NCBI GenBank assembly: GCA_964431685.1 | Contig: CAYSLA010000005.1 | Coordinates: 1 to 50,282 of the forward strand | Direction: 5' to 3' | Length of the DNA: 50,282 nt | DNA from: an uncultured bacterium | GTDB lineage: Bacteria > Armatimonadota > UBA5829 | Shown here: positions 5,009 to 45,007 of the stretch, piece by piece | How the letters are laid out: each line of letters opens with the position of its first letter | Numbering within the stretch: position 1 is the first letter of the stretch | Notes under the pieces: model-generated | Database searches by the model: none | The model's input: only the letters and a program-made list of their open reading frames with translations | What the model was told of the DNA's origin: nothing | Position numbers and translations under genes: made by a program

Positions 5009-8000
5009 ATGCGTGTTAGCAGGATACTCTTAGCGTTTGCAGCGGCCGCTGTGGGACTGTCCAGTCTGACTGCGTGCGCCGGCACCGCCTCCCTGACTGC
5101 CGGTGACCTCGGCCTGTCGCTCGACACTGCCAGCGGCCTTGTGCAGAGCACGGCTCTGTCCGGATATGTGTTCGCTGCGGGCATCAGAAAGCATGGTTTC
5201 TTTATAACAGATTTTGCCGCTGGTACGGCGCCGCAACCGGCAGAAGGAACGCTTTCGTATGACGGTGCGGGGCACCTGACCGGCACCCTCAGCACCGCCA
5301 GTTCACAGGTGCAAATAATCCCATCACTGAAAGCCGTTGGCAGTTACATCTCCTGCCGCGCCCGGGTACTGGACACCTCCAGCCCGCACCGCGACCGGGC
5401 CCTGGTAGTGTCTTTCCGGATCCCGCTGCACGCGGGAAGCGGTCTGTGGCAGTGGGACGATGATCTGCGAGCGTCTCGCACCATATTCTTGGAGGGACTG
5501 GGGGCGACCCTGGCAATCAACGGCAATGATGCAGAAGGCGAGAATTGCAGGCTGCTGGCGGGCGAGGTATATGACATAACCGCGTCGGGGTTTCCGCTTG
5601 TGTCTCAGGTGGTCGGACAGACAAGCGGATGGTGGGCTGACGCCGAGTTCGCGGAGTATTGGAGCGCACCGGGCTATCCCGGCGGCAACTTGTTGTATCG
5701 GATGGAGAAACCCTACAACGACTCAACGCTCTGGGACGTCCTCATCGACGGCTCGCCTGTGGACTGGCTGGGAAGCCCGGACGGTCAGACCTGGGCGCCT
5801 CACACTTATTCGCCTGACCATACCTACAAGTATAGCATTACCGGCACAGGCACGCTCGTCAATTTCTCGCGCCTCGATGCGCTACGTGACAACCGGAGCG
5901 GGAATCTGACACTGGATATCGTGCCGGCAAACCCGGAACTGTCCGAAGGCTACCCATACGAGACTACGCAGCTATACGGTTGGGACCCGCCGTACAGCCT
6001 GAACAGATACATATCCAAGTATCCTTTCTCATCAATGAGGTCAGACAACGCGGCAATATCGATGGCGATCCCCTTGTCCGAACCGCGTATCTACAAGTTC
6101 TCGTACGTACCTCTGCGTAATGGCGAAGGTTACCTCGAAGTCTCGTTCGAGATTGGGCTGTCGCCGGACCTCACGAAATCGCCGAACGAAGCAACAGTTG
6201 AGTTTATAATCTATGCCAACGACCCAGCCTGGGGTTTGCGGTCTGCGGCGCGGAACTACTATGACATCTATCCGGAGACCTTCCACAAGTATGCGAGTCG
6301 CGAGGGTATATGGCTGCTCGGACTGGACTGCGGAGCTGTGTCGGAGCCGTGGGACTTCGGCTTCATGTTCGATGAAGCTGCCACAGCGAGCGACGCTGAG
6401 CTGATCTATGACGACATATTCGACATATACGGGTTAAACTACATAGAACTCGGCGGCGTCTGGGCGGCTTTCACGGGCTACGACGACACTCCGAACGCCG
6501 CTTTCCCGTGGGAGGCAGGCGTGGGCTATGAGGAGCTCGAGACACAGTTCCTGTCCTGGCGCTATCAGAACCCTGCATTCTACGATGCGGTTGAGGCCTC
6601 GGCCCTCTGTGACAAGAATGGCAACTGGATATGGTCGCATTGGACGGATCAGTTTTTCTGGGCTGCAAAGGCTTCTCATCTCAAAGCGTCTCTGGACCCG
6701 GACATACCTGGCGGATACGGCTCCTGGCTTATGAACGCTGTGACGTCTACGCTGGAGAGCCTGGATGCAGGGGACGGCAAGACAGGCGGAGTATTCCTGG
6801 ACAGTCTGTCCGCCAGCATATCAGTGCAGTGGGAAGACTACCGTCGAGCGCATTGGGCATATTCCGACGCAGGGCTTACGTTCAGCCACGATACGAAGAC
6901 GCCGGTTTCGCTGCTCGGCGACGGCGAGTGGAAGTTCGTTCGCGACCTGTCGGCCTTCCTGCGAGCACGGGACAAGTTGATATTGGCCAACGTCTATCCA
7001 GTAGGAGACAAGTTCTTTCACCCGTTTCTGGATGCGTTCGGGATAGAGACTTTCGGTGGTACGTGCGGAGGAAGCTTCTGGCCGTATCTCAGGGTCATGG
7101 CCAACCAGAAGCCCGTGAGCTGGCTGGACTACTTCATGCTCTCCGACGACACGGCTCCTGAGTGGTTCAGCAGGGAAAGGGCAATGAATAACTGTCTTGC
7201 CTGGGGAATGTATCCCGGCACCGCCGACTTCATATACAACAATGCCGCAAATATCGAGGAAGCGAGACCAGTCTACAAAGAATGGATGCCCAGGATTCTC
7301 GAGGTGGGCAGCGCCGGGTGGCAGCCGATAACACTAGCCCAAAGCCCGACAGCAAACGTGTGGGTGGAACGGTTCGGCGACTTTGCCACAAACGGCGTGG
7401 TCTACTTCACAGTCTACTCCAATTGGGATTTCACCGGCAGCCAGGGCGAGATCTCCATCGATAGACAGGGGCTCGGAATCCCCGCAGGAGCGACCCTTAT
7501 CACGGAGGAGCTTACAACCGGCGACACGGTCAACTGGACCCAGGAAGACGGCGGGGCGAGAATGAAGACACAGGTAAGCCTGCCCGGGATTATGAGAACC
7601 CGAGCCATAAGGATCGCTACGCCGCAGGGCCTGTCGGGAGTCTGGGCTGCCAGGGGAGGCGAGTTCCTCCGCAGAGTGCACTCTCAGATGAAGTGGTTGA
7701 TCTACCAGGGCGCGCCGCGCGATCTGAAGTCGGCCATCGATTCACTGTTGCCTCAGGTCAAGGCGCTCGTTGAGCAGTGCGACGACGCTCTGGCAGCCAA
7801 CAATAGCAGGCCGCCGGAAGCTACCCTGATCAGTCTCAGAAACTCCGCCGCGGAGATGGTTGTGCTAATCGGACAATTGAGGCAGGATAACGAGTCGAGC
7901 GTGATCTGCCTGCAGCAGTGCCAGGTCGCACTCGAAGCATTTCAGAAAGCCATGGACCTGCTGCACTTCCTGCCGACTACCCCGACCGGCAGCCTGTCGG

Positions 8001-8470: not shown

Positions 8471-9786
8471 GGGCAGCGGTGATTGAAGCACCTGGAGTGC
8501 TGAAGATATGGGACATCCCCCAGCCCGTTCCGGGCGAGTATGACGCGTTGTGTGAGAATCTCTACGGAGCGACCTGCACCGGGACAGACACTCATCTCAT
8601 ACGCAATACGTTTCCCTGGGGATGCACGTACCCTGCGATCCTGGGACACGAGAGCATCGGTCGCGTAATCGAATGCGGTAGCAAGGTGAGGAATCTGCGA
8701 GTCGGGGACTTGGTCACGCGAGTGAGCGCACCAGCCGATCCGACAATCGGGCTGTCTGTAAGCTGGGGCGGCTTCGCCCAATACGGAATTGCCCGCGATC
8801 ACTGGGCTATGCGCGCAGATGGACTGAAGCGCAGCCTTTGGAATTCGTACAGACCGAATCAGGTCATTCCACCAAACTTCGACCCCGCAGCCGCCACCAT
8901 GATAATCACGTGGAGAGAGACTCTGAGCTACGTCAGTCGGATGAGGATACACAAAGGAAGCAGAGTCTTAGTTCTAGGCACGGGGGCAAATGGGCTGTCA
9001 ATCGCAAATCAGGCAGCCAACGCCGAGGCGCAGGCGGTTCTGGTGGTCGGATCCACGGCAAGAAAAGAGGCTGCGATGAGGGTTGGAGCCACCGACTTCC
9101 GCGACTACAAGAGCACGGCGCCTGACAAGCACGGTGCCTGGACAAGAGTGTCCAGGCCTACCGCCGCCTCTGCGCCTGACAGTCTGAAGGCCGACTACCC
9201 CGATGGTTTCGACTTCATAATCGACGCAGTAGGAAAGAGGGACAACCTGAACACCTATCTGCCAATGCTGCGTGCAGGCGGAACAGTTGGCGTCTATGGC
9301 ATCGACGACTACAACATCTACAGTATGAACCCACTGCTCCCCGGAGGAAGCTTCACGTTCTTCAACGGAGGCTATGACGAAGAGGAATCGCACGCCAGGG
9401 TCGTTGATCTAATACGAACCGGCGGCCTCAGGGCGGACGACTACCTTACGCAAGGCAATATTGTCCCGCTTGATGATATCGAGCAGGCCTATGCCGTCTC
9501 TCTGGGATTGCAAGCACATCAAGACAGTTGTCGGTCTGACATGAACCCATCCCGGCCCACTTTCGACACGGGATGGGTGAATGCGCTACCACGGGTTCGA
9601 GGGAGCCATCTTCCAAGCCGTGATTTCTCTGAATTGCGTATCGGAGCCGCGGGAGAACAGGCACACGCCCATGTCTTCAGGCTCGTAGTCGTGCTGTTTG
9701 AGCATGGCTTGGCGATCATTGACGAAGACTTCCACAATACGCCTGTCAACGAATATCCGCAGAGATATGTCCTCACGCGGCTCTAA
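8467..9786 (+). CDS. zinc-type (MDR) alcohol dehydrogenase family protein; 3' end probably frameshifted
   Basis: The start ATG overlaps the previous stop (ATGA at 8467-8470). Motifs GHESIGRV and LVLGTGANGL are present. The tail after ~9500 loses homology and overlaps the convergent GH32 gene. An alternative frame ends WDCKHIKTVVGLT* at 9544. Confidence 0.7.
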   Translation: MRAAVIEAPGVLKIWDIPQPVPGEYDALCENLYGATCTGTDTHLIRNTFPWGCTYPAILGHESIGRVIECGSKVRNLRVGDLVTRVSAPADPTIGLSVSWGGFAQYGIARDHWAMRADGLKRSLWNSYRPNQVIPPNFDPAAATMIITWRETLSYVSRMRIHKGSRVLVLGTGANGLSIANQAANAEAQAVLVVGSTARKEAAMRVGATDFRDYKSTAPDKHGAWTRVSRPTAASAPDSLKADYPDGFDFIIDAVGKRDNLNTYLPMLRAGGTVGVYGIDDYNIYSMNPLLPGGSFTFFNGGYDEEESHARVVDLIRTGGLRADDYLTQGNIVPLDDIEQAYAVSLGLQAHQDSCRSDMNPSRPTFDTGWVNALPRVRGSHLPSRDFSELRIGAAGEQAHAHVFRLVVVLFEHGLAIIDEDFHNTPVNEYPQRYVLTRL

Positions 9787-11013
9787 CTCCAACGGCGCGG
9801 CCGTATCCCCGAGCTTGATCGTCTTGTTCGCCGGTTCGACGGCAACGTCGATGCCGCTGGAGTCGTTGTCGCCGGCGTGCACCATTATGCCGAAGCTCTG
9901 GGCATCGCCCTGTGCAGGAGTGGCCATGATCTCGATGGTGTCACCAAAGATATCTTTCAGGCGGTAAGGCATGCCGGATTCGACGGTTATGTCCGACTCG
10001 AGTGTCATTCCATACCTGAGTTGCTCAAGCTCCCGCAGTGGCTTGATGCGCAGCACGCCATCGCTGGGAAGGCTCAACTCGCGCGGCAGGCTCTGAATAC
10101 CGTCCCACAGGCTGTTCCCGCCACCCATACACCACGCCCAGATCACACGTCGCCCGTCAGGCGTAAGCAGACTCTCGGGCGCAAAGAAATCCAGTAATGC
10201 CAAATCTTCGCCCTTCTGACCCCAGTTCATTCGCGCGTGGAAATCCGGCTTGAACTGCTCGTTCTCCCATTCGCCCAGATAGTATCGACAGCCCAGGTTG
10301 TGGCTTATGCACAGCAACATATACTTGTCGCCGATCTTGAAGAAGTTCGGGCAGGATACGTCTTCGTCAGCCTGCACGTCCGGCATCTCGGTGCCCATGA
10401 ACAAGCCCACATAGTCCCAGTGGAGCAGATCCGTCGACTTCATCAGAGTGGGCGGCTTGCCGCTGCCGGGAGTACCTCCAAAGATGGCATAGTAAGTGTC
10501 GCCCTCAAGCCAGCAGTCCGGGTCCCAGTGAGCTATATGGCTGTCGTCCTGGCCTGGACGGATACGCGGCTCAATCGCACAGGGTGCATTCCAGTGATCG
10601 AGCTCGTCGTCGGCAGCGATGGCAATCTGGTTCCTTTCTGACTGGTAACCGTGGTAGATGATGGTGGGAATGCCCTCTTTGTTGAGAAAACAGGTGCCGC
10701 TGAACATACCGTGTCCCATGGTCTGAGGGCTAAGAGACAGGGGATGCCAGCGCCAGTGCACCATATCGGCACTCGAGACGTGCGCATAGCTGCACCCACC
10801 GCCATCGTCGACGATATAGTGCAGATGATACAAGCCTTTGTGGTAGATGGCGCAGTTCGGGTCGGCGGGAAAGGCCCTGCCTTCCGGGTTCACCAAGTGG
10901 TAGGTTGGCCGGCTGCGGTCGGCGATCAGCCTCTTGCGGAAGCTTCGATAGGCTCCGACCTCTTCGGGCGTGGCTTCTACGGTCATAGACGGGGAGACTT
11001 GTTGCGAAAGCAT
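9586..11013 (-). CDS. glycoside hydrolase family 32 (beta-fructofuranosidase/levanase-like)
   Basis: Motifs: YHLVNPEG..ADPN..YHKGLYHLHY, WDP (RDP position), SCPNFF (EC motif), and the C-terminal sandwich LRIFVDRRIVEVFVND. Start chosen at the internal ATG 11013, which has RBS AGGAGA; the track start is 11124. Confidence 0.8.
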   Translation of the reverse strand: MLSQQVSPSMTVEATPEEVGAYRSFRKRLIADRSRPTYHLVNPEGRAFPADPNCAIYHKGLYHLHYIVDDGGGCSYAHVSSADMVHWRWHPLSLSPQTMGHGMFSGTCFLNKEGIPTIIYHGYQSERNQIAIAADDELDHWNAPCAIEPRIRPGQDDSHIAHWDPDCWLEGDTYYAIFGGTPGSGKPPTLMKSTDLLHWDYVGLFMGTEMPDVQADEDVSCPNFFKIGDKYMLLCISHNLGCRYYLGEWENEQFKPDFHARMNWGQKGEDLALLDFFAPESLLTPDGRRVIWAWCMGGGNSLWDGIQSLPRELSLPSDGVLRIKPLRELEQLRYGMTLESDITVESGMPYRLKDIFGDTIEIMATPAQGDAQSFGIMVHAGDNDSSGIDVAVEPANKTIKLGDTAAPLELEPREDISLRIFVDRRIVEVFVNDRQAMLKQHDYEPEDMGVCLFSRGSDTQFREITAWKMAPSNPW

Positions 11014-11169
11014 AGGAATATCTCTCCTGAATGCAATTGTTGGTGTTCGGCGGCTGCCAGGCAGGCGAAGCAAACGCGCATCCTGCCAACGCCAATTATG
11101 GTCTTTGGCAGGATACGCTGTCAAACGAGACGGCTAACGATTGCCGTAAGAGCCGCCGTCTCGCCGAGT

Positions 11170-11266
11170 ACTACGTCATGCCGGTCCTGAATCAAGTTCA
11201 GGATATCCGGCAACCATCCGGAGAAGGGATGGGCCCTGAAACGAGTTCAGGGTGACGTGGTTTCTC
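11170..11266. repeat. composite palindromic element, copy A (multi-hairpin, closing stem ACGTCA/TGACGT)
   Basis: Shares its flanks and central hairpin with 20843-20925: ACTACGTCATGCCGG...CCGGCA[A/C]CCATCCGGAGAAGGGATGGG...AGTTCAGG[G/A]TGACGTGGTTTCTC. It contains CCTGAATCAAGTTCAGG and CCCTGAAACGAGTTCAGGG. Confidence 0.8.
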
Positions 11267-11307
11267 GCATTGACGGCAGCTCTGATGACGATTGCCCGCT
11301 GCAGGCG

Positions 11308-12426
11308 CTATGGTTCCACGATTCGCACAATGTCCGAGGAAGCTCTCACGAGCAGTAGAGGATGGAGACTGCCGTCGGGCGCCTTCGTGCAAGAGGATAT
11401 TGCCGTTATCGCCACATAGGAACCAACTGGCACGGGGCTTATACTCGATGGCACACTCACCGCCATATCCGCTCCGGAACCATCGCTGATCTTGATGCCA
11501 GAGCCGGTTTGCTCTGTAACAACCCCGGTTGTCCGCACCAGTAGCCCTATGTTGCACGGCCCGATGCCTCCCACGACCCCGCGCTGGCCGGTTCCTCTGA
11601 GTGGGTCATAGAACCAGTCGGCCCCGCCAAGCGAGGCGTTGTTCATCGCCAGTGGAGCGATGCTGCCGCTTGCCGTCCTCACCGCGGCGCTAGCGTTTAT
11701 GCAGCGTTCGCCGTCATTTGTGGTCGACGCGACCCCAGCCACAGTTACGCGGGAGCCCGCCGCTAGTCTGTTGTTGGGCCAGTTGACCCGGATTCCGTGA
11801 GACCGATCTTCCGATTCGACATAGAACATATCGGCAAAGGATCGCGTGATCACCGCTCCTTCCATGTTCACGGGCACTCCATCCGGAGCCAGTTTCGAGC
11901 TCCTTATGCCAGTGTAGCTGCCGATAACGGTAAGATCATCCACCGCAAGACCGCCGGGCCCACTGCCCGGGTGTCCGCTCAGAGCAATGCCGGCGCCCTG
12001 GGTCCACCGGTCGGCCGATGAGTCACTGACCGTTGCCGAGTGGCTGACAGGAAGCCCGTTCGCGCTGACACCATCCCACATTATCGTCAGATCGGTCTTG
12101 GACGAGCCGACGTCCACTTTGACAGACAGGGTGGACCACTTCGCGAGATCAACGCCAGTGTGCGGGCTCGAAGCGTTTGTGTATAGGCTGGTCACTGTGC
12201 CGTCGGCGTTCACGCGGTTGATCATCAGCACAAGCGAGCCGCTGCTGATGCTTGTCGCCCTGGCCTCGTATCCGTAGTACGTGGGAGGTGCGCCTTGCGC
12301 CTGCGGGCAGGGGCCGTTGTTGCCGTGGCCACAGGCTGACCGATGGCGAGCCGGTGCCGGTAAAGCGAGCCCGAACACTCGCGACATACGATGGGCTTGA
12401 CAGCGGCATCCCTCGCCGCCGACCAC
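11308..12426 (-). CDS. hypothetical protein, paralog of the decayed gene at 15446-16270
   Basis: 372-aa ORF. Motifs shared with the 15.4-16.3 kb locus: DL[AN]KWSTL, SGSIAPLA[ML]NN, GIG..NIGLLVRTTG, ISSC. No signal peptide is seen and the true start is uncertain. Confidence 0.55.
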   Translation of the reverse strand: MVGGEGCRCQAHRMSRVFGLALPAPARHRSACGHGNNGPCPQAQGAPPTYYGYEARATSISSGSLVLMINRVNADGTVTSLYTNASSPHTGVDLAKWSTLSVKVDVGSSKTDLTIMWDGVSANGLPVSHSATVSDSSADRWTQGAGIALSGHPGSGPGGLAVDDLTVIGSYTGIRSSKLAPDGVPVNMEGAVITRSFADMFYVESEDRSHGIRVNWPNNRLAAGSRVTVAGVASTTNDGERCINASAAVRTASGSIAPLAMNNASLGGADWFYDPLRGTGQRGVVGGIGPCNIGLLVRTTGVVTEQTGSGIKISDGSGADMAVSVPSSISPVPVGSYVAITAISSCTKAPDGSLHPLLLVRASSDIVRIVEP

Positions 12427-20842: not shown

Positions 20843-20925
20843 ACTACGTCATGCCGGACTTGATCCGGCACCCATCCGGAGAAGGGATGGGTCCGGCAGC
20901 CAAGTTCAGGATGACGTGGTTTCTC
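20843..20925. repeat. composite palindromic element, copy B (72-nt core 20846-20917)
   Basis: Closing stem ACGTCAT/ATGACGT. Hairpins GCCGGA-cttga-TCCGGC and ACCCATCC-ggagaag-GGATGGGT. Flanks are identical to copy A. Confidence 0.8.
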
Positions 20926-23091: not shown

Positions 23092-24171
23092 CTAAGCTAT
23101 CTGCTGGAGCTGCTCTTTGGTAACCTGATGCTCCAGCGGCTTGCCCGAGAAGAATCTCTCCAACTCCATAACTGCAAGATTACCAACGCGGGCGATGTTG
23201 TTAGAGGATACGCCCGAGATGTGCGGAGTAAAGATCACGTTGGGCAGAGTCCGAAGAGGATGATCCTCGGCAGGCGGCTCCGGGTCAGTGACGTCCAGAC
23301 ACGCCGTTATCCTGCCAGTCTTGAGCTCTTCGTACAGCGCTGCTTCGTCTATCAGAGAACCCCTCGCCGTGTTGATGATGATAGCTCCGTCTTTCATCAT
23401 CTTGAGGTTCTGCGCGTTTATCATGTGATGGGTTTCGGGAAGGCTTGGTGCGTGCAGAGAGATTACGTCGGACTGTCTGACCATATCGTCCAGACTGTCG
23501 CAGCTCACCACGCCCATCTCTTCGGCCCGATGCCGGGATACGAACGGATCGTAGAGCAGGGTCTCCAAGTCAAAGCACTTCAGCAGTCTGATGAAGTGTC
23601 TGCCCGCGTGCCCGGCGCCTACAACGCCGACGTTGATGCGGTAAGTCTCCTTTATGCGCTCCATCTCCACTGGATCCCGCCAGCCACCGTTGTGGATATG
23701 GTCGTTGAGCTGGTAACACCTCTTCATTGATGAGAGCATGAGTCCGAGTGCGTGCTCAGCTACACCGACCGCTATTGCAGAAGCCGCACTGCTTACCGAT
23801 ATGCCCCTGTCCCAGACGGCCTCGGTGACTATGCTCTTGACCGAGCCTGCGGCGTGAGCGATCATCTTCAGAGAGGGGGCCCGATCGAGCAAGTCAGCCG
23901 TAAGCAGCGGAATATCCCAACTGGTGATGCATCCATCGGCCCCGGCGATGACCTCCTTGACCCTGGCAGGATCACCATCCGGCATTGGGCCGTTGACAAC
24001 CTCGGCAAAACCCTTCAGCCTTTCGATATCCTGAGAAGCGATAATCCTCCTTCCCAGGTTGTTTGGAATGGAGTCCGGTATCATGACTGCTATTCTTGGT
24101 TTCAAGTCTATTCCTCGTGAATTACTCGTTGCTGGAAAGCGGTATGCCAAAGCAACGTAGAGTCGCGTCAT
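23092..24171 (-). CDS. D-isomer-specific 2-hydroxyacid dehydrogenase family protein
   Basis: GVVGAGHAGRHF (NAD fold), NTARGSLIDEAAL, LDVTDPEP, PHISG. The start may be downstream (MIPDS...). Confidence 0.8.
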   Translation of the reverse strand: MTRLYVALAYRFPATSNSRGIDLKPRIAVMIPDSIPNNLGRRIIASQDIERLKGFAEVVNGPMPDGDPARVKEVIAGADGCITSWDIPLLTADLLDRAPSLKMIAHAAGSVKSIVTEAVWDRGISVSSAASAIAVGVAEHALGLMLSSMKRCYQLNDHIHNGGWRDPVEMERIKETYRINVGVVGAGHAGRHFIRLLKCFDLETLLYDPFVSRHRAEEMGVVSCDSLDDMVRQSDVISLHAPSLPETHHMINAQNLKMMKDGAIIINTARGSLIDEAALYEELKTGRITACLDVTDPEPPAEDHPLRTLPNVIFTPHISGVSSNNIARVGNLAVMELERFFSGKPLEHQVTKEQLQQIA

Positions 24172-24840
24172 CCTTAACCCGATTCAGGACTGATCCCGCC
24201 ACTCGGCATGTGCGGGACAAGTGCCGGTATGGCCTTGTTTCCGGCAGAAGTGAGGAATCTGCCCTTTGAATCCTCGGCACGCTCAGCAGATTCCTCCGTT
24301 CCATCGCAATGATGCGTGCGACGAGCGTTAGTCGCCTGACTGCCCCGCGTTTTTCAGCGGCACGCTCATGTCGGTACTGGTGACCTCATTGTCACCATCA
24401 GTATCGCCGTTTAAGAGCAGCGTGTCAAGAGTGACGGACTGACCTGCCCAGACGACCACACCGGGGAACACCCGTCTCAGGAATCCGGAAGCGCTCACCT
24501 CGACGTCGTACACACCGGGGTCGAGGTTAAGAAACGCGTAGCCGCCAGGGTTCTGGGCAAGAGTAACGCTCTGGCTGGCAACGGTCACACCCTGCTGCTT
24601 CAGGTCGATAGAGACCGGAAGCAAATCCAAACTCCCAATGAAGCCCTCGAGAGTTATAGACCCTCCCAGGGAGCTTATGTCGCCGCCGTATCTGATGCCG
24701 CTTGAGAGCCTCAGCTCGTCCATACTGCCGAGCAGGTTGTACCAGTTGTGCCCGTCTTGTCTCCCGGCCACCGTCGCGGGGCCGAGCACAGGATCCGGCG
24801 TGCCCATGCTAGTAACATCCTGCGCAAAGACCTGAACTCC

Positions 24841-24864
24841 CCCTGAATCAAGTTCAGGGCAAGA
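24841..24864. repeat. 24-nt palindromic unit R1 (CCCTGAATCAAGTTCAGGGCAAGA)
   Basis: Exact 20-nt core. It lies between LamG segments ...GGRNII and GVQVFAQD, where the paralogs have KFWKN. The frame is not preserved here. Confidence 0.9.
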
Positions 24865-25134
24865 TAATGTTCCGCCCGCCGGACTCTGCGTCCCTCTGCC
24901 ACGTCACCGCGGCGTGAGTCCAGGTGTTCAAGTCCCAGTCGGTTGACGGATCCATAACAGACTGCCAACCGCCCTTGGCATACCAGCCAACCGACATGCG
25001 CATCCGGCCGCCGGTGTAGACCAGCGACCAACTGTAGTCAGCGCCGGTATAGTTCTGCAGGAGCACCCAGTAGCTATTCTCCAAAGTCGGATATAGCCAC
25101 GCTTCGGCAGTAAGGCTGTCTATTCCAAACCCAA

Positions 25135-25154
25135 CCCTGAATCAAGTTCAGGGC
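25135..25154. repeat. palindromic unit R2 (20-nt core)
   Basis: Exact core CCCTGAATCAAGTTCAGGGC. Removing 22 nt (25133-25154) joins YKKV to GFGIDSLTAEAW in frame. Confidence 0.9.
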
Positions 25155-25177
25155 GACTTTCTTGTAGACGCCGCTCT

Positions 25178-25201
25178 CCCTGAATCAAGTTCAGGGCAAG
25201 C
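25178..25201. repeat. 24-nt palindromic unit R3
   Basis: CCCTGAATCAAGTTCAGGGCAAGC. A clean 24-nt insertion within LamG coding sequence. Confidence 0.95.
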
Positions 25202-25219
25202 TATAGTTAACTTGCAGAG

Positions 25220-25243
25220 CCCTGAATCAAGTTCAGGGCAAGC
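25220..25243. repeat. 24-nt palindromic unit R4
   Basis: Identical to R3 and separated from it by 18 nt (6 codons, LQVNY region). Confidence 0.95.
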
Positions 25244-25322
25244 TGTTGCCGAAGCTGGTCTGTCCGGCGATGTAGTGATTGGGCTGGGCGGCTAGACCAG
25301 TGTTGAGCGTCCCATGCACGTC

Positions 25323-25342
25323 CCCTGAATCAAGTTCAGGGC
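25323..25342. repeat. palindromic unit R5 (20-nt core) at a gene-fragment junction
   Basis: Exact core with a tail (TCGA) that differs from the consensus. It supplies the TGA stop of ORF 25336-27774 and directly abuts the truncated LamG fragment. Confidence 0.9.
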
Positions 25343-27774
25343 TCGATTCCGTCGCGCAGAAGCACCATCCGAAGACTGGGGACGATGTTCATGTTCTTCT
25401 CCGGAAGGTCGGTGCCCCCTGAATCAAGTTCAGGGCAAGCTCTGGGATCGGGCGGGTAGAAGTAGGCGAGAGTGCCGTTCCCATATTGTCCGCCTGGATT
25501 AACCCAGGGATTCTGGAAGACTACGTACTCATTCTCCTGCCACCATATCGCTATCGCCCAGGTGGACATACCCTTCGCGCCCATCCACCACACCTTCGGC
25601 GCCATAAGCCGCTGGTCGATGGAAGGAGCGTCTATGAACTGATGGATGGTTTGTGTGTAGTAGGTCCAGACCTCTTTGCCGGCCGGGTACGCAGCAATGG
25701 CCGCCGGCGAAGCGATGTTGAGCGCATCGTTATTCTCTGGTATGAGAATATCAACGTGGTTGCGAAGAGCATCATAGGCCTCGGCGTTGTAGACGTAGGC
25801 ACCCATCTTCACGTCCTTAGCGTGCGGCTGCAGACGGAATGCGTCTATGAAGTTACGGACTCCCTGATACGCGTAGGGCTGCGGTTCGTCAATCTGAACA
25901 AACGCGTTATCAAGCCAGCCTTTGGCCGCCAAGTGAGCAGCAAGCGGCTCGTAGTAGCTGGTCACATATGGCGTCGCGCTCTCCACTGTGGTGTCTGCGA
26001 GAAGAGGGCCGGACTCGTGGCCGATTGAGTGAGTACTCAAGTTCAGTTCATCCAAAACACGGGAGTACTCCACGTCGTATTCTGCGGGGAACGCCGGGAG
26101 CGTGCCTGTGTACCACACGTAAGGAATCAAAGGATTGGTCTCGGCTATCTTGTAGCGAGCCATCTCGGAGACATAATCTCTCGTCAGGCTGTATTTGTCC
26201 ACGCGCTCAGTGACCTTGTGGAACGGAAAAACCTCGGCGCTGGCATATCTGGACATCTGGAAGGATGTCTTGCAGCTCGGCCGCTCCGGCAGAACGAAAT
26301 TCCACACCTTGAGTTCAACCGGCACATTGACCACGCCGGCTGACGTATGCAGGTTCACCTGGCCGTTGTAGGTTCCCGCAGGCATCTGCCTGGGAATGGT
26401 CACGTCTACCCAGATAATGATATTGGGATCACCCGCGTCGAACGACACCGGGGCAAATTTCACCAAAGGATCCGGCAGGTTACCGGTGAATGCGGAGCGT
26501 ATCGGTTCGGTCAGGAACTGGCCCGTCTTCGACGGAGTGTGAATAGGCACATAGCAGGCGCGGCGAATATCGAAATTCCTCTGTGGAACGGTTACGCCGC
26601 CGGGACCAGTAAGACTCGCGCTGACTGAGGTAATCGCTCCCGCCGAGGTTGGGCGGAAGACCAGTTGCAGCGCCTCCGACTCATTACGCGCACATGAGAT
26701 AGAGACCTTGGTACGGTTGGCGCTCGGTGCCTGAGCATTCTCCAGAACCTTTTTTGTGGTGGACGTATACCAAAGACTGCCCAGGCTGCCCGATGGCAGC
26801 GAGTATGATATGTCTTCCTCAACCCATTCGGTGGCTGCAAGCTTGGTAACGTTCAGCGTCTGAGACGGAAGGGAAGATGCCTGCTGACTCGGAACGTGCG
26901 GTGTTATCCCTTCCAGCGGAGAGTAGTACAGGTCATAATACTTTGTGCCACTCGAGGCTGCGTTCAGGACGAACCCCACCTGGCACTCGCGCAAAGAGAT
27001 ATCGTCAGCGGCGGACCCCAGTATACGCTCAAACCGCACTTGCAGTTTGTCATTGATCCAACCCGCTTTGTCCCACGTGTTGAAGTAGTACTCGCGTGAA
27101 TACCATCCGGTTGCAGGTATGTACGGATCGCTGTAGGTGTGCGATACGGGCTGCCACCATAGGTCGTTGACGTTGGAATACGCAGCGGACGAGCCAGACC
27201 CCTTCGCCCAATGGGAGTACCGATACCACGTGTTGGGGTTAACGGTGACATACTGCCAACAGGCGGACCGATCCTGGGCGGTGCCCTGCACAGTCATACA
27301 CCAACTGCCGTCGTGTGAGTTCTGCTGCAAGACAAACGATGCCGGCTGGTCTATGTTCCATCCCACCGGCACGCCGCCGGACTGCTGCTCGAAGTTGCCG
27401 TTCACTACCAGTTCCTGAGTTCCCACCACGATCTTGTAGGCCGCGGACACATTGTCGCTGATCAGGTTGCCGCCCGCGTCGACCTCAACGAGTTTCACGT
27501 TGTCATAAGAGAAGTACTCGTGCTGGAACTTGAACTCGGCCTTCTCATTTAGCCAACTGGTGATCGTCTGAGGCGTCAGATTGAGCGCATACGAACCGGC
27601 TGACGGCACGCTCACAGATATGCGAACTCTGAACGGGTAGTAACTGTCCGTCCAGGGAGCCGCATATACTCCCAAAGCACCAATCACCAGAATGACCGTG
27701 ACGGCCAGAATGCAGAAAAACGATTGCCTGGTTCTGCCAAGGATAGTCTTAGACATATTGTTGTCCATCATCAT
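25336..27774 (-). CDS. DUF4091-like putative glycoside hydrolase (GH123-like), N-terminal membrane anchor; C-terminus truncated
   Basis: 812 aa. Motifs ARNESEALQLVFRP, ELKVWNFVLPE, GNGTLAYFYP...PSLRMVLLRDGIE. The usual continuation (DYE...; compare SIRWEVWAESLQDYAILQ in 48494-50095) is missing, and the ORF stops inside R5. Confidence 0.75.
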   Translation of the reverse strand: MMMDNNMSKTILGRTRQSFFCILAVTVILVIGALGVYAAPWTDSYYPFRVRISVSVPSAGSYALNLTPQTITSWLNEKAEFKFQHEYFSYDNVKLVEVDAGGNLISDNVSAAYKIVVGTQELVVNGNFEQQSGGVPVGWNIDQPASFVLQQNSHDGSWCMTVQGTAQDRSACWQYVTVNPNTWYRYSHWAKGSGSSAAYSNVNDLWWQPVSHTYSDPYIPATGWYSREYYFNTWDKAGWINDKLQVRFERILGSAADDISLRECQVGFVLNAASSGTKYYDLYYSPLEGITPHVPSQQASSLPSQTLNVTKLAATEWVEEDISYSLPSGSLGSLWYTSTTKKVLENAQAPSANRTKVSISCARNESEALQLVFRPTSAGAITSVSASLTGPGGVTVPQRNFDIRRACYVPIHTPSKTGQFLTEPIRSAFTGNLPDPLVKFAPVSFDAGDPNIIIWVDVTIPRQMPAGTYNGQVNLHTSAGVVNVPVELKVWNFVLPERPSCKTSFQMSRYASAEVFPFHKVTERVDKYSLTRDYVSEMARYKIAETNPLIPYVWYTGTLPAFPAEYDVEYSRVLDELNLSTHSIGHESGPLLADTTVESATPYVTSYYEPLAAHLAAKGWLDNAFVQIDEPQPYAYQGVRNFIDAFRLQPHAKDVKMGAYVYNAEAYDALRNHVDILIPENNDALNIASPAAIAAYPAGKEVWTYYTQTIHQFIDAPSIDQRLMAPKVWWMGAKGMSTWAIAIWWQENEYVVFQNPWVNPGGQYGNGTLAYFYPPDPRACPELDSGGTDLPEKNMNIVPSLRMVLLRDGIEP
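25417..25440. repeat. 24-nt palindromic unit R6, in phase inside the DUF4091-like ORF
   Basis: Identical 24-mer. On the minus strand it occupies exactly 8 codons (GCT TGC CCT GAA CTT GAT TCA GGG = ACPELDSG). Confidence 0.95.
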
Positions 27775-35171: not shown

Positions 35172-37046
35172 TTAGATATTGGCCTTGACCTCGTCGCCAA
35201 ACCCTATATATCGCTTCTCGCGAACGTCATAGATGTGGCCACTGGTGTCCAGCTTGAGGGTGCAGTCAAGTCCCTGGCCTTTCTGCATGCGTGATTCCTG
35301 GGGCACATAGTAACTGGTGCGGAATGACTCTTGGACCAGCGGGTAGTACACGACGTTGTCCGACCCCACAAACTTGCCTATCCGATAGTACGGCGCACTC
35401 TTCTCAGGATAGTACGGTGTGGTAATTGTCACGGCCCGCAGGGGGTAGTCCTCGCCCAGTGCCTTTCGGAAGACCTCGCGGTACGCACGCGCCATCGACT
35501 CCCTGCCTGCCATCGGATCGTGGTAAGGTCCCGGCAGCGGATCGGGCAGATAGACTTTGTAGTTGCTCAGATATGAGTTGACGAACACTGCGCGCCCGGC
35601 TCCGTGTTTCTTTGAGGTGACCAGGGGCAGAGCATCCGTAAATGTGCTGATCACTTCCGCCTGAACTGGCTCGTCATAGCAGGTCACGTAGTTGACCTTC
35701 TCCAGCAGATAGGGCCAGTCAAAGCCTATGGCTCCGGCGTATCTGGTACCCTCAATGCCAAACCTGAACTTGCTGTCCCGCTCCTGAAGGGACTCGAGTG
35801 TAGCGCCGTGAATATCCGCGAACAGCTTGTCCATATAAAGGCGGTACTCCAGCCACGGCGCAAAGGTGTAGATCTCGTCGCCGTCTCCGGCTCTCAGATC
35901 GTCCTTGCTTATCTCGCCGGCAACGCCTCCGCCGCCCACCTCCACGTCGGAGCGTGCCAATGTCTCACTTATGTTGCCCAGCTCAGCCGGTTGGGTTTCA
36001 CCGAATGACTTGTAGGACGTTCCCCAGCTCCTGTTGAACCGCGAGAGGTCGCCCGCATACGACTGCTCCATCCACTTTCGGAAGGCCTCGATGTTCTTTG
36101 GCGCGTATGACATCCAGCTCTGCTGCTCGTCGCCGGACAGGTATGTATCTACCCCCCACTTCTTGGCCACGTCCGCGTTCCGGTTCACGTGCCACACGTA
36201 TTGGGAAACGAACGCGTCGTCTCCAAGCACCATCCGGCTTTCATCGGCCGGCCTCCAGAGTCGATTATCCTCGGCTCTCGCAAGGTATGAGAGAACTCCA
36301 GCGGAGTACTGGAAGATCGGCCTGATACCGTGCACGGCCAACGTGCCAAAGAAGTCATCCAAGACCCCATCCCACTCCTCGTCAGACAGCTTCTGGGACG
36401 CATAGTAGTTTGCGTACGCCGTACTCCCCACAACGCCCACATCTCTCTGAGTCTTGAGCGCGTGCAGTGCCCAGGGCCTGTTGAACTGGAATGGCGCTTC
36501 GCCCCACACGTCGAAGACGAACTCCTCAACTTTGTGGTCGAAATCGTCCAGTCCGCAGGCCACCGGTTTCTTGACCACGTCGACGATCTTCCCGGCGTTC
36601 TTGAGAGTCACCGACAAGAAGACCCCACTGCTCTTCGCATCTGAAGTGTCCATATTGAATCGCGCTTTGCCGCCGTCGACACGCCTGGAGTCGGACCAGA
36701 TAAGACGATCGTAACCGTCGTGGACTTCAGCCTGCAAGGTGTCTCCGGCGGAGGCCGAGTCGAGAACCACATCAAACGTTCCTCCGGCCTTGGGGTAGCC
36801 TGACTTTGCTGTCTGAACTTCCTTGATTCCCGGCCGTGTGCCTTCGACTGGGACGACACAGAAGTCCAACGTCCTGCCATACATGTCCTTGAGCCATAGA
36901 TTTGCGAGGTTTTCGCCCTTCCTGACAACCGAAAACGCCTCCGCCAGCGGCACGCGGACTGCGCCTGCTCCGTCCGTATTCACGGCGAAAGCCGCGCTTG
37001 AGCAGAGCTCATAGTTCTTATCTCTGAGTTCGCTCACCAGCGTCAT
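35172..37046 (-). CDS. GH42-like family protein, middle segment of a split paralog
   Basis: 624 aa. FRKWMEQSYAGDLSRFNRSWGTSYKSF. Colinear with residues ~430-1090 of the 1208-aa protein. Confidence 0.65.
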   Translation of the reverse strand: MTLVSELRDKNYELCSSAAFAVNTDGAGAVRVPLAEAFSVVRKGENLANLWLKDMYGRTLDFCVVPVEGTRPGIKEVQTAKSGYPKAGGTFDVVLDSASAGDTLQAEVHDGYDRLIWSDSRRVDGGKARFNMDTSDAKSSGVFLSVTLKNAGKIVDVVKKPVACGLDDFDHKVEEFVFDVWGEAPFQFNRPWALHALKTQRDVGVVGSTAYANYYASQKLSDEEWDGVLDDFFGTLAVHGIRPIFQYSAGVLSYLARAEDNRLWRPADESRMVLGDDAFVSQYVWHVNRNADVAKKWGVDTYLSGDEQQSWMSYAPKNIEAFRKWMEQSYAGDLSRFNRSWGTSYKSFGETQPAELGNISETLARSDVEVGGGGVAGEISKDDLRAGDGDEIYTFAPWLEYRLYMDKLFADIHGATLESLQERDSKFRFGIEGTRYAGAIGFDWPYLLEKVNYVTCYDEPVQAEVISTFTDALPLVTSKKHGAGRAVFVNSYLSNYKVYLPDPLPGPYHDPMAGRESMARAYREVFRKALGEDYPLRAVTITTPYYPEKSAPYYRIGKFVGSDNVVYYPLVQESFRTSYYVPQESRMQKGQGLDCTLKLDTSGHIYDVREKRYIGFGDEVKANI

Positions 37047-37082
37047 GCTGAACTCGATTCAGCACCCAGACGTTCCCTTCTC
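37041..37082. repeat. partial copy of the composite palindromic element, at an ORF boundary
   Basis: CGTCATGCTGAACTCGATTCAGCACCCAgacgtTCCCTTCTC. Compare the reverse complement of element A, CGTCACCCTGAACTCGTTTCAGGGCCCATCCCTTCTC. It contains the palindrome GCTGAA-ctcga-TTCAGC (37047-37063). Confidence 0.7.
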
Positions 37083-38438
37083 TACCGCTACCTCCAGCAC
37101 ACCATTCTCGGCCTTCGCTGAGACTATCCGGACCGCGGGCTTCCGGGCTGAAACGCTGTATATAAGGTCGATTAGAAAAGCGTAGAAGTTCTCGCTCGGA
37201 GTCGGCATGGTCTTGTAGAATCCAAACTCCGGCAAGAACGCGCTTCCCATAAAGTTGAGTTTCTCTCGATAGAGAAAGTTTTCGTATCTGAGGAGAGCCA
37301 CACTGCCGCTGCCGTGGTTTCCCAGAGAGAGCATGTCTTCGGGAAGCGGCTTCATCAGTTGGACCTTGTCCAATGCAAACCGAGAAATGACCCGGGACTG
37401 CAGCTCGGGTGTAGAGCTCAGGCTGGAAAGCACGGCGTCCATATCCCCAAGCATACATTCTTTCAGCGGGTTAGAGTATATGAGGCCAGTTCCGGACTTC
37501 ACCTTGGCGAGAATGGCTGTCCGTACACTCTGGGGCAGATCTGACCATTTCACGCTGGCGCCGAGCATTAGTACGTCCCAGTCGTGAGACAGCAAGTTCA
37601 GCGCCTTCTGCTCTTCGACTATCGTCATCGCGGGCACTTCGGGTTGGTCGCCAGTGGAGTTCCAAATTATGGGAACCCAGTCCCACTTGAGGTCCATGCG
37701 CTGGTTGAGTTCGGCGATGTCCCTGAACTGACCCATGTGCGTGAAGAACAAGGCTCTGACAGTGCCGACGGCCGAAGGCGCCGACCAGACGACGTGAGGG
37801 GTGACCACTTCCGTGTTCATCTGCAGCCAGGCGCTGAGGGAGGCATCTCGCATCCAAAGCTCCTCCAGACTCATTGTAGCCTGAGGACGAACCAGCTCAC
37901 GGCTGCCGCTGCCCCGGGTCACCTCGATCTCATTGATCTTACAGCCCCAGTAGTTGCGCACGAATACAGCGACGTAGCGCCCATAGCCGGTCAGTCCACT
38001 GAAATCGACGAACGGCGAGACGGCGTCCGCAAGGCTGGCTTGATCATAGTTGGCGAATGGCTTGCGCTCGGCGAGGAACTGCAGCTTGTCCAGCGTCTCT
38101 CCTGCGTAGACGGCGAAATGCGGTTTGAGATTCACCCAGGCACTGGTGTAGTTGTTGGTGGTGCCCGAGTAGATTCTCACGTGATCTATGAACTCCGGCT
38201 TCTCCAGATCGATGAGCACATATGTATGATCACTCCAGTTGTCGCCCCAGTCGGCGAAAGTCTCCACATCACCGTCGGTAATCCGGGAGAAGAACGCCGC
38301 CGTGGTGTTCACGACGGGCAGAGTGACCACCTTCTTGCCCAGTGCCACGTTAGTCCGGTCGTCGGCCCCGAACGCGGCAGATATCATCGAGACCGTCAAT
38401 ACCAAGAGCAAGAAACAAACCCAAGCCAAACGACGCAT
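37059..38438 (-). CDS. discoidin (F5/8 type C)-like domain protein, N-terminal segment of the split GH42-like paralog
   Basis: Signal peptide. ITDGDVETFADWGDNW..YVLIDLEKPEFIDHVRIYSG (discoidin-like). VRALFFTHMGQFRDIAELNQRMD and WDVLMLGASVKWSDLPQSVRTAILAKVKSG align with the N-terminus of the 1208-aa protein. Confidence 0.65.
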   Translation of the reverse strand: MRRLAWVCFLLLVLTVSMISAAFGADDRTNVALGKKVVTLPVVNTTAAFFSRITDGDVETFADWGDNWSDHTYVLIDLEKPEFIDHVRIYSGTTNNYTSAWVNLKPHFAVYAGETLDKLQFLAERKPFANYDQASLADAVSPFVDFSGLTGYGRYVAVFVRNYWGCKINEIEVTRGSGSRELVRPQATMSLEELWMRDASLSAWLQMNTEVVTPHVVWSAPSAVGTVRALFFTHMGQFRDIAELNQRMDLKWDWVPIIWNSTGDQPEVPAMTIVEEQKALNLLSHDWDVLMLGASVKWSDLPQSVRTAILAKVKSGTGLIYSNPLKECMLGDMDAVLSSLSSTPELQSRVISRFALDKVQLMKPLPEDMLSLGNHGSGSVALLRYENFLYREKLNFMGSAFLPEFGFYKTMPTPSENFYAFLIDLIYSVSARKPAVRIVSAKAENGVLEVAVEKGTSGC

Positions 38439-43657: not shown

Positions 43658-45007
43658 TTAGTGGTTGTCGATCTCGCCAACAAACCCGTAGAGGTGGGAC
43701 TGCGTTGCTCGGACACGTACGAACTGCCCAGCAGTAGCTACGGAGCCTGGAAAGTTCGCAGTCTTGTTCTGACGCGTAAGACCGGTCAGACGGCCATCGT
43801 GTTTGGGGCTGATTCCCTCAACCAGAACCTCATAAGTGCGGCCGACCTGAGAGGCGTTGATCAGGCTGGTGATCTCGTTTTGTAGCTCGATGAGTCTGTT
43901 GAGGCGCGCCATCTTGACGCGCTCCGTCAGATGCCCGTCCATCGCGGCGGCGGCGGTACGGGGAATGGGGTTGAACGAGAACATGAAAGCCGAGTCGAAT
44001 CTGACATCCTCGACAAGCCTCAATGTGTTCTCGAACTGCTCCTGGGTCTCTCCGGGAAACCCCACAAGCAGATCAGTAGTAATCGCGATATCCGGCATAG
44101 CGGAGCGCAGAGCGGCGACCCTCTCGCGGAACACTGCGGAGGTGTACTTCCTGTTCATACGCGCCAACACCTCATCGTCTCCCGACTGCACCGCAAGGTG
44201 AATGTGCTCGCACACCTTTGGCAGCTCAGCCATCGCTTCTATGAGTCGATCTGACAAGTCCTTTGGATGGCTGGTAGTGAATCTGATGCGTTCGATCCCG
44301 GCAACCTCGCTTACCTTGCGCAGTAGATCAGCGAAATCGGTGCTTATCCCCAAGGTCGCTCCGTAGGAGTTCACGTTCTGGCCGAGCAAGGTTATCTCCT
44401 TCCGGCCCAATGCCGCAAGTTGAGTTGCCTCCTCCACGATTTCGTCCAGCGGCCGGCTGCGCTCCCGCCCGCGCACATAGGGCACGACGCAATACGCGCA
44501 GTAGTTGTCACATCCGTACATTGCGGGAAGAAAGCTCTTGAGCGCAGTCCCCTGACGGTCTACTCTCTGTGGCAGGGACCGTGCGGCGTCGCCGGGTTGC
44601 TCCGGCATATCCAGAGCGGCCGCAAATGAACGCCGCTCTTCAATGCGGCGAATGATGTCCGGAATCTGGTGAATGGCCGCGGTTCCCACCACGAAGTCCA
44701 GGTACGGCCGGCCCTTACGGAGCGCGCTGCCTTCGCGCTGGGCCATGCACCCGCACACACCGATTATCATCCATGGACGCTGCTCTTTGAGTATTCTCAG
44801 TTCACCCAGCTTGCTCTTCGCCTTCTGCTCCGGCTTTGCCCGCACGCTACAGGTCACCAGTACAGCTATGTCAGCCTCATTTGCTTCTTGGGTCGGGGCA
44901 AGACCCATCTGCATAAGAAGACTCGAGATCTGCTCTGAGTCGTCCTCGTTCATCTGGCAGCCCCAAGTGTAAATGATAAATCGGTTCACGGTTACGCGCA
45001 CTCTCAT
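43658..45007 (-). CDS. miaB: tRNA-2-methylthio-N6-dimethylallyladenosine synthase MiaB
   Basis: 449 aa. UPF0004 N-domain (IYTWGCQMN), radical-SAM CDNYCAYC, and a TRAM C-terminus. Confidence 0.9.
   Translation of the reverse strand: MRVRVTVNRFIIYTWGCQMNEDDSEQISSLLMQMGLAPTQEANEADIAVLVTCSVRAKPEQKAKSKLGELRILKEQRPWMIIGVCGCMAQREGSALRKGRPYLDFVVGTAAIHQIPDIIRRIEERRSFAAALDMPEQPGDAARSLPQRVDRQGTALKSFLPAMYGCDNYCAYCVVPYVRGRERSRPLDEIVEEATQLAALGRKEITLLGQNVNSYGATLGISTDFADLLRKVSEVAGIERIRFTTSHPKDLSDRLIEAMAELPKVCEHIHLAVQSGDDEVLARMNRKYTSAVFRERVAALRSAMPDIAITTDLLVGFPGETQEQFENTLRLVEDVRFDSAFMFSFNPIPRTAAAAMDGHLTERVKMARLNRLIELQNEITSLINASQVGRTYEVLVEGISPKHDGRLTGLTRQNKTANFPGSVATAGQFVRVRATQSHLYGFVGEIDNH

Follow-up and report, generated by a model that had tools for sequence, protein, structure and literature searches.

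What kind of element is an intergenic sequence of 97 nt that folds into several hairpins, recurs a second time on the same contig and is built partly from small palindromes that also occur on their own nearby? We address this question for a stretch of 50,282 nt (the window) from contig CAYSLA010000005.1 of assembly GCA_964431685.1, which belongs to an uncultured bacterium of the Armatimonadota (UBA5829). The window is a segment of a bacterial chromosome with ~57% GC, also recorded as contig Ga0212121_10000340 of a metagenome from the Joint Genome Institute (JGI), and its MutS is at most ~80% identical to MutS of Armatimonadota metagenome-assembled genomes (MAGs). The two sequences at issue, copy A (11170-11266) and copy B (20843-20925), had been described in an initial annotation, made from the sequence alone, as a composite multi-hairpin element with conserved ends. 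We conclude that A is very probably an intact miniature inverted-repeat transposable element (MITE) of a non-autonomous family, with ends of the type found in insertion sequences (ISs) of the IS66 family, mobilized in trans and carrying the multi-hairpin core as a passenger.

Copies A and B share sequence and fold

The blocks ACTACGTCATGCCGG, CCATCCGGAGAAGGGATGG and TGACGTGGTTTCTC are present without a mismatch in both A and B and at no other site in the window, where 0 chance matches are expected for the 19-mer block. In a pairwise alignment, the main differences between the copies are an insertion or deletion (indel) of 15 nt in hairpin 1 and the 5′ arm of hairpin 3; the sequence around A is unrelated to the sequence around B. 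Each copy folds into a closing stem (ACUACGUCA/UGACGUGGU) and three hairpins, with + strand energies of −56.9 kcal/mol for A (z −7.1) and −51.0 kcal/mol for B (z −6.4). The − strand folds are 7-9 kcal/mol weaker, a difference due to G-U pairs. The exact shared blocks and the two folds thus bear out the conserved ends and the common structure that the annotation had proposed.

On the + strand, the core of A consists of the closing stem (11170-11178 paired with 11253-11261), hairpin 1 (GCCGG...CCGGC, 11180-11211, with a CTGAA palindrome nested at 11186-11202), hairpin 2 (CCATCC-GGAGAAG-GGATGG, 11214-11232) and hairpin 3 (CCCTGAA-ACGAG-TTCAGGG, 11234-11252). Across 35 copies, 95% of cells are paired in this fold, and a covariance model scores A at 91 bits and B at 88 bits. 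With at most one mismatch, CCTGAA-N5-TTCAGG occurs nine times in the window (one site with a single mismatch) against 0.15 expected; two of these sites lie within A and six at 24842-25434. The CTGAA palindromes claimed for A are genuine. At the gathering threshold, Rfam 15 has a single match in the whole window, a tRNA, and none to the element; a permissive scan of 10900-11500 returned chance-level matches only.

Terminal repeats and target-site duplication of copy A

The interval 11170-11266, which had been given as the whole element, proved to be its core only, with ~24 nt more on the left and ~22 nt more on the right. Full copy A extends from 11146 to 11288 (143 bp), with imperfect terminal inverted repeats beginning GTAAGAG as its ends. 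Immediately outside them stand the two identical copies of an 8-bp target-site duplication, CGATTGCC (11138-11145 and 11289-11296), and the same geometry is found at 19-21 of 24 other loci. The left terminal repeat (11146-11174, + strand; GTAAGAGCCGCCGTCTCGCCGAGTACTAC) is an end of the IS66 type and contains CTAC; the right one (11267-11288, + strand) is degenerate (GCATTGACGGCAGCTCTGATGA against the consensus ACATAGTCTGAGCTCTTAC). Within these ends, GAGCCGCCGTC on the left is complementary to GACGGCAGCTC on the right at positions where the consensus has GAGCTCAGTC and GACTGAGCTC, and locus L031 has the same left variant; where the MITE terminus is GTAAGAGCTCAGTCTCGCTGAGTAC, the variant in A is GTAAGAGCCGCCGTC. 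Because its two ends have changed together and the variant is shared with L031, A looks, from sequence comparison, like a member of a subfamily and not like a decayed copy.

Two genes on the − strand enclose A: a hypothetical gene (11308-12426), whose stop codon is on one side, and a GH32 gene (9586-11016), whose start is on the other. No promoter-like or intrinsic terminator-like site was found at or inside the element, and the open reading frames (ORFs) that run across A or B are spurious overlaps on a hairpin-rich repeat with no plausible coding capacity. Outside the element, 22 nt from the left end of A, a strong sigma-70-like site (TTGACA-18-CATAAT, 11/12 matches; 11095-11124, − strand) faces the GH32 gene.

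A dispersed family in freshwater metagenomes

We scanned JGI metagenome contigs with the 19-nt hairpin-2 sequence and found 65 loci, making 67 matches with the two in the window (which are also included in the 49 of 67 that show the full architecture). Among these are 24 distinct full-length copies with lengths of 124, 139 or 206 bp. The family consensus is GTAAGAGCTCAGTCTCGCTGAGTACTACGTCATGCCGG, then either ACTTGAT or TCCTGAATCAAGTTCAGGATAT, then CCGGCACCCATCCGGAGAAGGGATGGGTCCTGAACCAAGTTCAGGATGACGTGGTTTCTCACATAGTCTGAGCTCTTAC, giving 124 or 139 bp. It begins GTAAGAGCTCAGTCT... and ends ...AGTCTGAGCTCTTAC, and its terminal inverted repeats read GTAAGAGCTCAG(T/A)CT at both ends. All copies are intergenic, lying between ORFs.

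Flanking 8-bp direct repeats at the 24 distinct loci match at 8/8 positions in nine cases, 7/8 in ten and 6/8 in one; two further loci become 8/8 after a 1-nt shift of the boundary, and two have no flanking repeat. Random pairs of 8-mers at the same spacing reach at least 7/8 in 0.1% of trials.

The family is also highly repeated in the communities from which the window comes, as judged from k-mer depth in four public runs that contain its contig (X1-X4). Summed depth in X1 is 1400-1800 over the core against 8-10 on the flanks, with similar ratios in X2-X4, so that core depth is ~150 times flanking depth. Loose contig ends in the four runs read GTAAGAGCTCA... and ...GAGCTCTTAC. Several of the scanned loci co-occur with the genome of the window (for example, the flanks of L013 and L064 are in X3), and the family is many-copied in freshwater metagenomes that contain Armatimonadota. 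This abundant family is present in an Armatimonadota genome and also in genomes found together with it in these samples. Its practical interest is mainly in annotation: such repeats break metagenome assemblies, with contigs ending inside them in all four runs, and they create spurious ORFs and could pass for small-RNA genes.

GTDB representative genomes, scanned with both conserved core ends (CTACGTCATGCCGG-N40-70-TGACGTGG), gave four matches, none of them to the family. The matches at L001 5376-5467 and L002 3716-3807 are long palindromes of ~92 nt from one alphaproteobacterial MAG that have only ACGTCATGCCGG...CCGGCATGACGTGG in common with the element. Their ends (CTACGTCATGCCGG...CCGGCATGACGTGG) coincide with those of the core, and their good covariance-model scores arise only from their having been selected by those ends; they are probably unrelated to the family.

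Two local arrangements were also seen. L011 holds two full MITE copies head to tail (677-814 and 823-961), with 8 nt between them. L021 (594-714, equal to L023 4777-4897) holds another MITE-like element of ~120 bp with the same type of end (GTAAGAGTTCAGAGTCCGTG...CACGGATTGTGAACTTTTGC), 13 nt from a copy of the main family.

Ends of the IS66 type

In a relative whose MutS is 80% identical, the mutS locus (L005) includes an IS made up of one ORF that encodes a DDE_Tnp_IS66 domain. The IS begins GTAAGAGTTCACTCTC..., finishes ...GAGAGTGAACTCTTAC and is flanked by the 8-bp duplication CGCACGGC; homologues of its transposase are numerous and mostly lie on contigs of ~1.5 kb. We compared the MITE with this IS and with those at L077, L078 and L080, each of which has one PF03050 (DDE_Tnp_IS66) ORF of ~450 aa. 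The ISs at L077 and L078 end in GTAAGAGCTCACTCTC... and ...TGAGTACT(G/A)C, and that at L080 begins GTAAGAGCTCAGTCTTCC... and has the 8-bp duplication ATTAGTTT; across the four, the ends follow the pattern GTAAGAG(C/T)TCA(C/G)TCT... and ...TGAGTACTAC. By BLAST, the consensus left end of the MITE (GTAAGAGCTCAGTCTCGCTGAGTACTAC; positions 1-28) matches the right ends of the ISs at L077, L078 and L005 with 85-88% identity over 26-28 nt, and the first 15 positions of the MITE match the left end of the L080 IS with 100% identity. The core of the MITE has no similarity to the IS interiors in the same comparison beyond chance words of 8-10 nt.

Published members of the family have similar features: ISDge4 (IS66 family, ISBst12 group) has the ends GTGACTACTCAGCA and GTAACTGCTCAGCA and an 8-bp repeat, CCTCGATG (PMC12898284), and ISDrpg6, also of the IS66 family, has 8-nt repeats (PMC10017437). 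A general description of MITEs is given in PMC3189936. IS66-like ends together with 8-bp duplications lead us to classify the element as an IS66-type MITE.

In the mechanism that we propose, an IS66-family DDE transposase, probably of an ISBst12-like group, would mobilize the MITE in trans, binding the GTAAGAGCTCAG... ends and making 8-bp staggered cuts in the target. The multi-hairpin core, with its closing stem and three hairpins, would be carried along as passenger sequence not derived from an IS, and one or two of its hairpins would be the CTGAA palindrome that also exists free in this genome. In the long, 139-nt subfamily this palindrome would have taken the place of the 7-nt loop of hairpin 1, after which the short and long forms would both have spread by transposition.

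The core is modular

The family splits cleanly into forms of 124 and 139 nt, the difference being exactly 15 nt in hairpin 1. This hairpin is GCCGG-ACTTGAT-CCGGC in the short form, and in the long form it holds the exact 17-nt CCTGAATCAAGTTCAGG of the free units. Both forms occur at numerous sites, each form with target duplications of its own. In diverged cores, hairpin 1 is free of the CTGAA palindrome: the tandem array at L024, described below, has the short form, and a third copy in the window, C, has a different loop of 13 nt. Because the two forms differ by exactly this indel and the diverged cores are without CTGAA at this place, the 17-nt CCTGAATCAAGTTCAGG is most simply explained as a later acquisition. 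The same observations uphold the earlier suggestion that the element is composite and had received a small palindrome by insertion. A CTGAA palindrome also makes up hairpin 3, where the second base of the loop varies.

At five loci a 206-bp variant has an extra module of 67 nt inserted exactly between AAGTTCAG and GATGACG in hairpin 3. This module (L073 2097-2163; also L014, L029, L048 and L071) has two small hairpins of its own (TCAATCATGGCGCTTCGCGCC...AGACCTTGAGGGTCTTCTTTCTGAGTAG) and may be a nested miniature element of another type. The A-type family is an ordinary kind of selfish repeat with an unusually modular palindrome cargo, and clearly exemplifies a MITE with an interior pieced together from smaller palindromic modules.

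Cores without terminal repeats

Several observations weigh against the explanation of A as a MITE with a passive core. At the ends of A itself, the right repeat is degenerate, with GCTCTGATGA where the consensus has GCTCTTAC. No IS was recovered with ends identical to those of the MITE (the closest are 85-100% identical over 15-28 nt), so the transposase partner is known at the family level only, and no IS66-family transposase, nor any other transposase, was found among the 20 largest ORFs of the window that were scanned. No empty-site contig for A or B was found in the four runs, among assembler contigs that break at the repeat, and we infer the mobility of A from the target duplications. The remaining points concern the core. 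B has a core that matches the family core, and its flanks have no significant trace of terminal repeats (p 0.08-0.26 in a test for decayed repeats). Simple decay of a MITE does not explain this, as neutral decay cannot erase the ends of B yet leave its core perfect. At L024 (6669-7385) a 94-nt unit is repeated 7.6 times in tandem; it consists of a diverged core that has no terminal repeats and of a 17-nt linker. Conservation in this genome is thus higher for the core than for the ends, a hint that something acts on the core itself.

Copy B (20843-20925, + strand) has the short hairpin 1, no terminal repeats and no duplication. Its only departure from the short-form consensus is in hairpin 3, the 5′ arm of which reads TCCGGCAGCC in place of TCCTGAATC. 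It also retains ACTAC, which in the MITE is derived from the IS, and on this sequence feature B likely descends from a MITE copy. Copy C (24163-24243, − strand; nhmmer E 3e-4, covariance model 45 bits, E 1.4e-11) likewise has no terminal repeats, and its core has diverged. Its hairpin 1 is GCCGG...CCGGC, its hairpin 2 is a different one (TCCCGC...GCGGGA), its hairpin 3 is degenerate (TCCTGAATCGGGTTAAGGA) and it ends in TGACGCG. B and C could be either MITE remnants with lost ends or products of a spread of the core that is independent of the terminal inverted repeats. On either side of the L024 array stands a copy of a ~55-nt sequence that can form a hairpin (6560-6615 and 7404-7460).

These cores, taken together with the free palindromes, allow an explanation in which the CTGAA palindrome is itself a tiny element of ~23 nt that overwrites native hairpins, and in which the core spreads without terminal repeats (B, C and the L024 array) or is kept by selection, either as an RNA or as a module that binds protein. 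We regard this explanation as unlikely. Two cases fit an overwriting palindrome: in the MITE, the 7-nt loop of hairpin 1, and in a gene with LamG domains, the native palindrome GTTCT-TCC-AGAAC. The mechanism, which would be an undescribed one, could be of the HUH type or involve template switching.

The second case comes from six free units, CCCTGAATCAAGTTCAGGGC(AAG), which contain the same 17-nt palindrome as hairpin 1 of A and start at 24841, 25135, 25178, 25220, 25323 and 25417 (24841-25439, + strand). These 23-nt units, all in the same orientation, interrupt the C-terminal LamG/CarboxypepD_reg part of a GH123-like gene (25336-27774 and 24328-24807, − strand). Homology to three paralogues runs on through the units with the frame stepping 2 → 0 → 1 → 2, and one unit supplies the stop codon of an 812-aa ORF. 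At the site of the first unit, a low-depth contig of run X3 without the unit reads CTCC-GTTCTTCCAGAACCGG-ATAATG, equal to the sequence conserved in the paralogues, against CTCC-CCCTGAATCAAGTTCAGGGCAAG-ATAATG in the window. The unit has therefore replaced 15-16 native bases, themselves a small palindrome, with 22-23, and the site is polymorphic between samples; the frame shift results from the net gain of 7 nt. We conclude that the free CTGAA units have genuinely been inserted into a gene or have replaced parts of it, with one of them polymorphic between samples. Elsewhere they are rare, with four distinct sites in ~540 kb of related loci. A 23-nt palindrome that replaces native coding sequence six times in one gene may merit a study of its own.

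Structured RNA or DNA palindrome

The strength of the fold raises the alternative that the core is a structured non-coding RNA, either a multi-copy small RNA or a cis-acting module, with its function in the three-hairpin fold (for example, in the conserved GGAGAAG loop) and with the terminal repeats serving only to spread it. The folds are strong and non-random, the + strand is the more stable by 7-9 kcal/mol through G-U pairs, and the 35 distinct cores include three pairs in hairpin 3 that have changed on both sides. The better conservation of the core relative to the ends in A and B, the architecture kept by C despite its different hairpin-2 sequence and the core-only units of the L024 array point the same way. 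The covariation is small, however, and confined to hairpin 3: it amounts to 8 cells and to only 3 pairs with both members changed, a count that is reached in 53 of 500 shuffles. In A, U-A has become C-G; in L064 and the L024 array, C-G has become U-A, with C·A intermediates in L042 and L053; and there is one change from A-U to G-C. The other helices are almost invariant and therefore uninformative either way. Template switching, moreover, can keep palindromic DNA repeats symmetric without any function as RNA. Compensatory changes between copies, which the initial annotation had put forward as a check on the hairpins, are therefore present in hairpin 3 but do not amount to proof of an RNA, as maintenance of a DNA palindrome gives the same result.

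Relative to co-directional neighbours the copies are in mixed orientation, 3 sense and 11 antisense, a weak trend in a tally made by eye with ORFs as gene proxies and with the copies in the window included. The absence of promoter-like and terminator-like sites at the element and of an Rfam match likewise argues against an RNA gene. None of the RNA runs contains A, and the single contact with RNA data, obtained with the L043 query, is one 166-nt contig in one metatranscriptome run at a depth of 2.8, which is uninformative. Nothing in the evidence requires a functional RNA, and we consider one improbable.

An allele of A in L041 (501-632) and in run X4 differs at window positions 11196-11202, where TTCAGG of the nested palindrome reads CTGCCGG. 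The change from AAGTTCAGGATATCCGG to AAGCTGCCGGATATCCGG destroys the CTGAA palindrome and creates a perfect GCCGGATATCCGGC, and, to judge by these letters, it looks like a template-switch mutation in a quasi-palindrome.

REP-like features and comparison with known systems

The CTAC at the left border of A had been taken as a possible signature of repetitive extragenic palindromes (REPs); in such a REP/REPIN-type element, an imperfect palindrome next to GTAG/CTAC would be recognized and spread by a REP-associated tyrosine transposase (RAYT, of the Y1 HUH type). CTAC does precede the closing stem in both A and B, and small, REP-like CTGAA palindromes exist in this genome both free and embedded in larger elements. 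However, CTAC belongs to the 28-nt terminal repeat of the IS66 type (...GAGTACTAC), where it closes the IS-type sequence ...TGAGTACTAC. Only a minority of the copies have it (~11 of 25 aligned; the others have GAAC, GTCG, ATAC, CCAC, CTGC or CAAC). Nowhere does the element vary more across copies than in this stretch, between the terminal repeat and the closing stem. On the GTAG strand the tetranucleotide is 3′ of hairpin 1, not 5′; in the REPs of E. coli, GTAG lies 5′ of the hairpin. The family also has terminal inverted repeats and 8-bp target duplications, which are hallmarks of elements moved by DDE transposases and which, to our knowledge, REP/RAYT systems do not produce. Among 20 ORFs of the window that were scanned, none has a Y1_Tnp domain. 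The variability of CTAC, the terminal repeats and the target duplications together rule out the REP class for A-type copies, and we hold a REP/RAYT origin to be very improbable. Finally, that A and B are a mere two-copy segmental duplication within the contig, as the two high-identity copies visible in the 50-kb window could suggest and as the annotation had kept in view, is refuted almost beyond doubt by the 24 full-length copies at unrelated loci, each with its own duplication, the ~150-fold depth of the core over its flanks and the unrelated flanks of A and B, all of which establish a dispersed element family.

The IS66-type MITE shares with REPs, bacterial interspersed mosaic elements (BIMEs) and REPINs the small, GC-rich, intergenic palindromes arranged in mosaics, and the free CTGAA units are of REP size. 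The A-type family differs from them in its terminal repeats and duplications, in having no conserved GTAG/CTAC and in that no RAYT was found among the 20 scanned ORFs of the window. Pneumococcal BOX elements and the RIMEs of rhizobia consist, as here, of interchangeable hairpin modules whose number varies between copies; they have no sequence relationship to this family, the outer modules of which are clearly IS66-type ends.

The element is closer in kind to MITEPsy1, associated with ISPsy2 in Pseudomonas syringae, which is likewise short and non-coding and has IS-like terminal repeats, a duplication of fixed length, dispersed intergenic copies and presumed mobilization in trans (PMC3189936). 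MITEPsy1 is listed as 'IS5?' with a 4-nt duplication (PMC3189936), whereas the present element has IS66/ISBst12-type ends and an 8-bp duplication. Compared with bacterial MITEs derived from DDE-type ISs, the interior here is not a collapsed IS but an unrelated, highly structured three-hairpin module that is also found without the ends. ISDge4, of the ISBst12 group, is similar in its ends, with GTAA.. followed by a GCTCAG-like motif (GTAACTGCTCAGCA; here GTAAGAGCTCAGTC), and in its 8-bp repeat (PMC12898284). The difference from this group is that the element has no transposase gene and is IS-like over only ~28 nt on the left and ~20 nt on the right.

Genomic context of copy B

B lies 66 nt after the stop codon of a gene of the major facilitator superfamily (MFS) and ~450 nt before mutS, between that stop codon and a cluster of weaker promoter-like sites. 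We considered B as a conserved cis element upstream of mutS and rejected this, as nothing like B is present at mutS in three relatives whose MutS is 78-80% identical; in these, a miaB-like gene stands directly before mutS, overlapping it or ~150 nt away. In the window, the miaB-like gene (43658-45007) is 23 kb from mutS, and B is at the mutS-proximal edge of the interval 20388-43657. This interval holds glycan-utilization genes (MFS, GDSL lipase, GH123/LamG paralogues, GH42-like and a regulator of the GntR/LacI type). Within it, at 37040-37073 (− strand), two ORFs are separated by a short spacer that is taken up by a palindrome of the CTGAA type, GCTGAATCGAGTTCAGC, with ATGACG after it; the TGA of the palindrome is the stop codon of 37059-38438, and the ATG that comes next is the start codon of 35172-37046.

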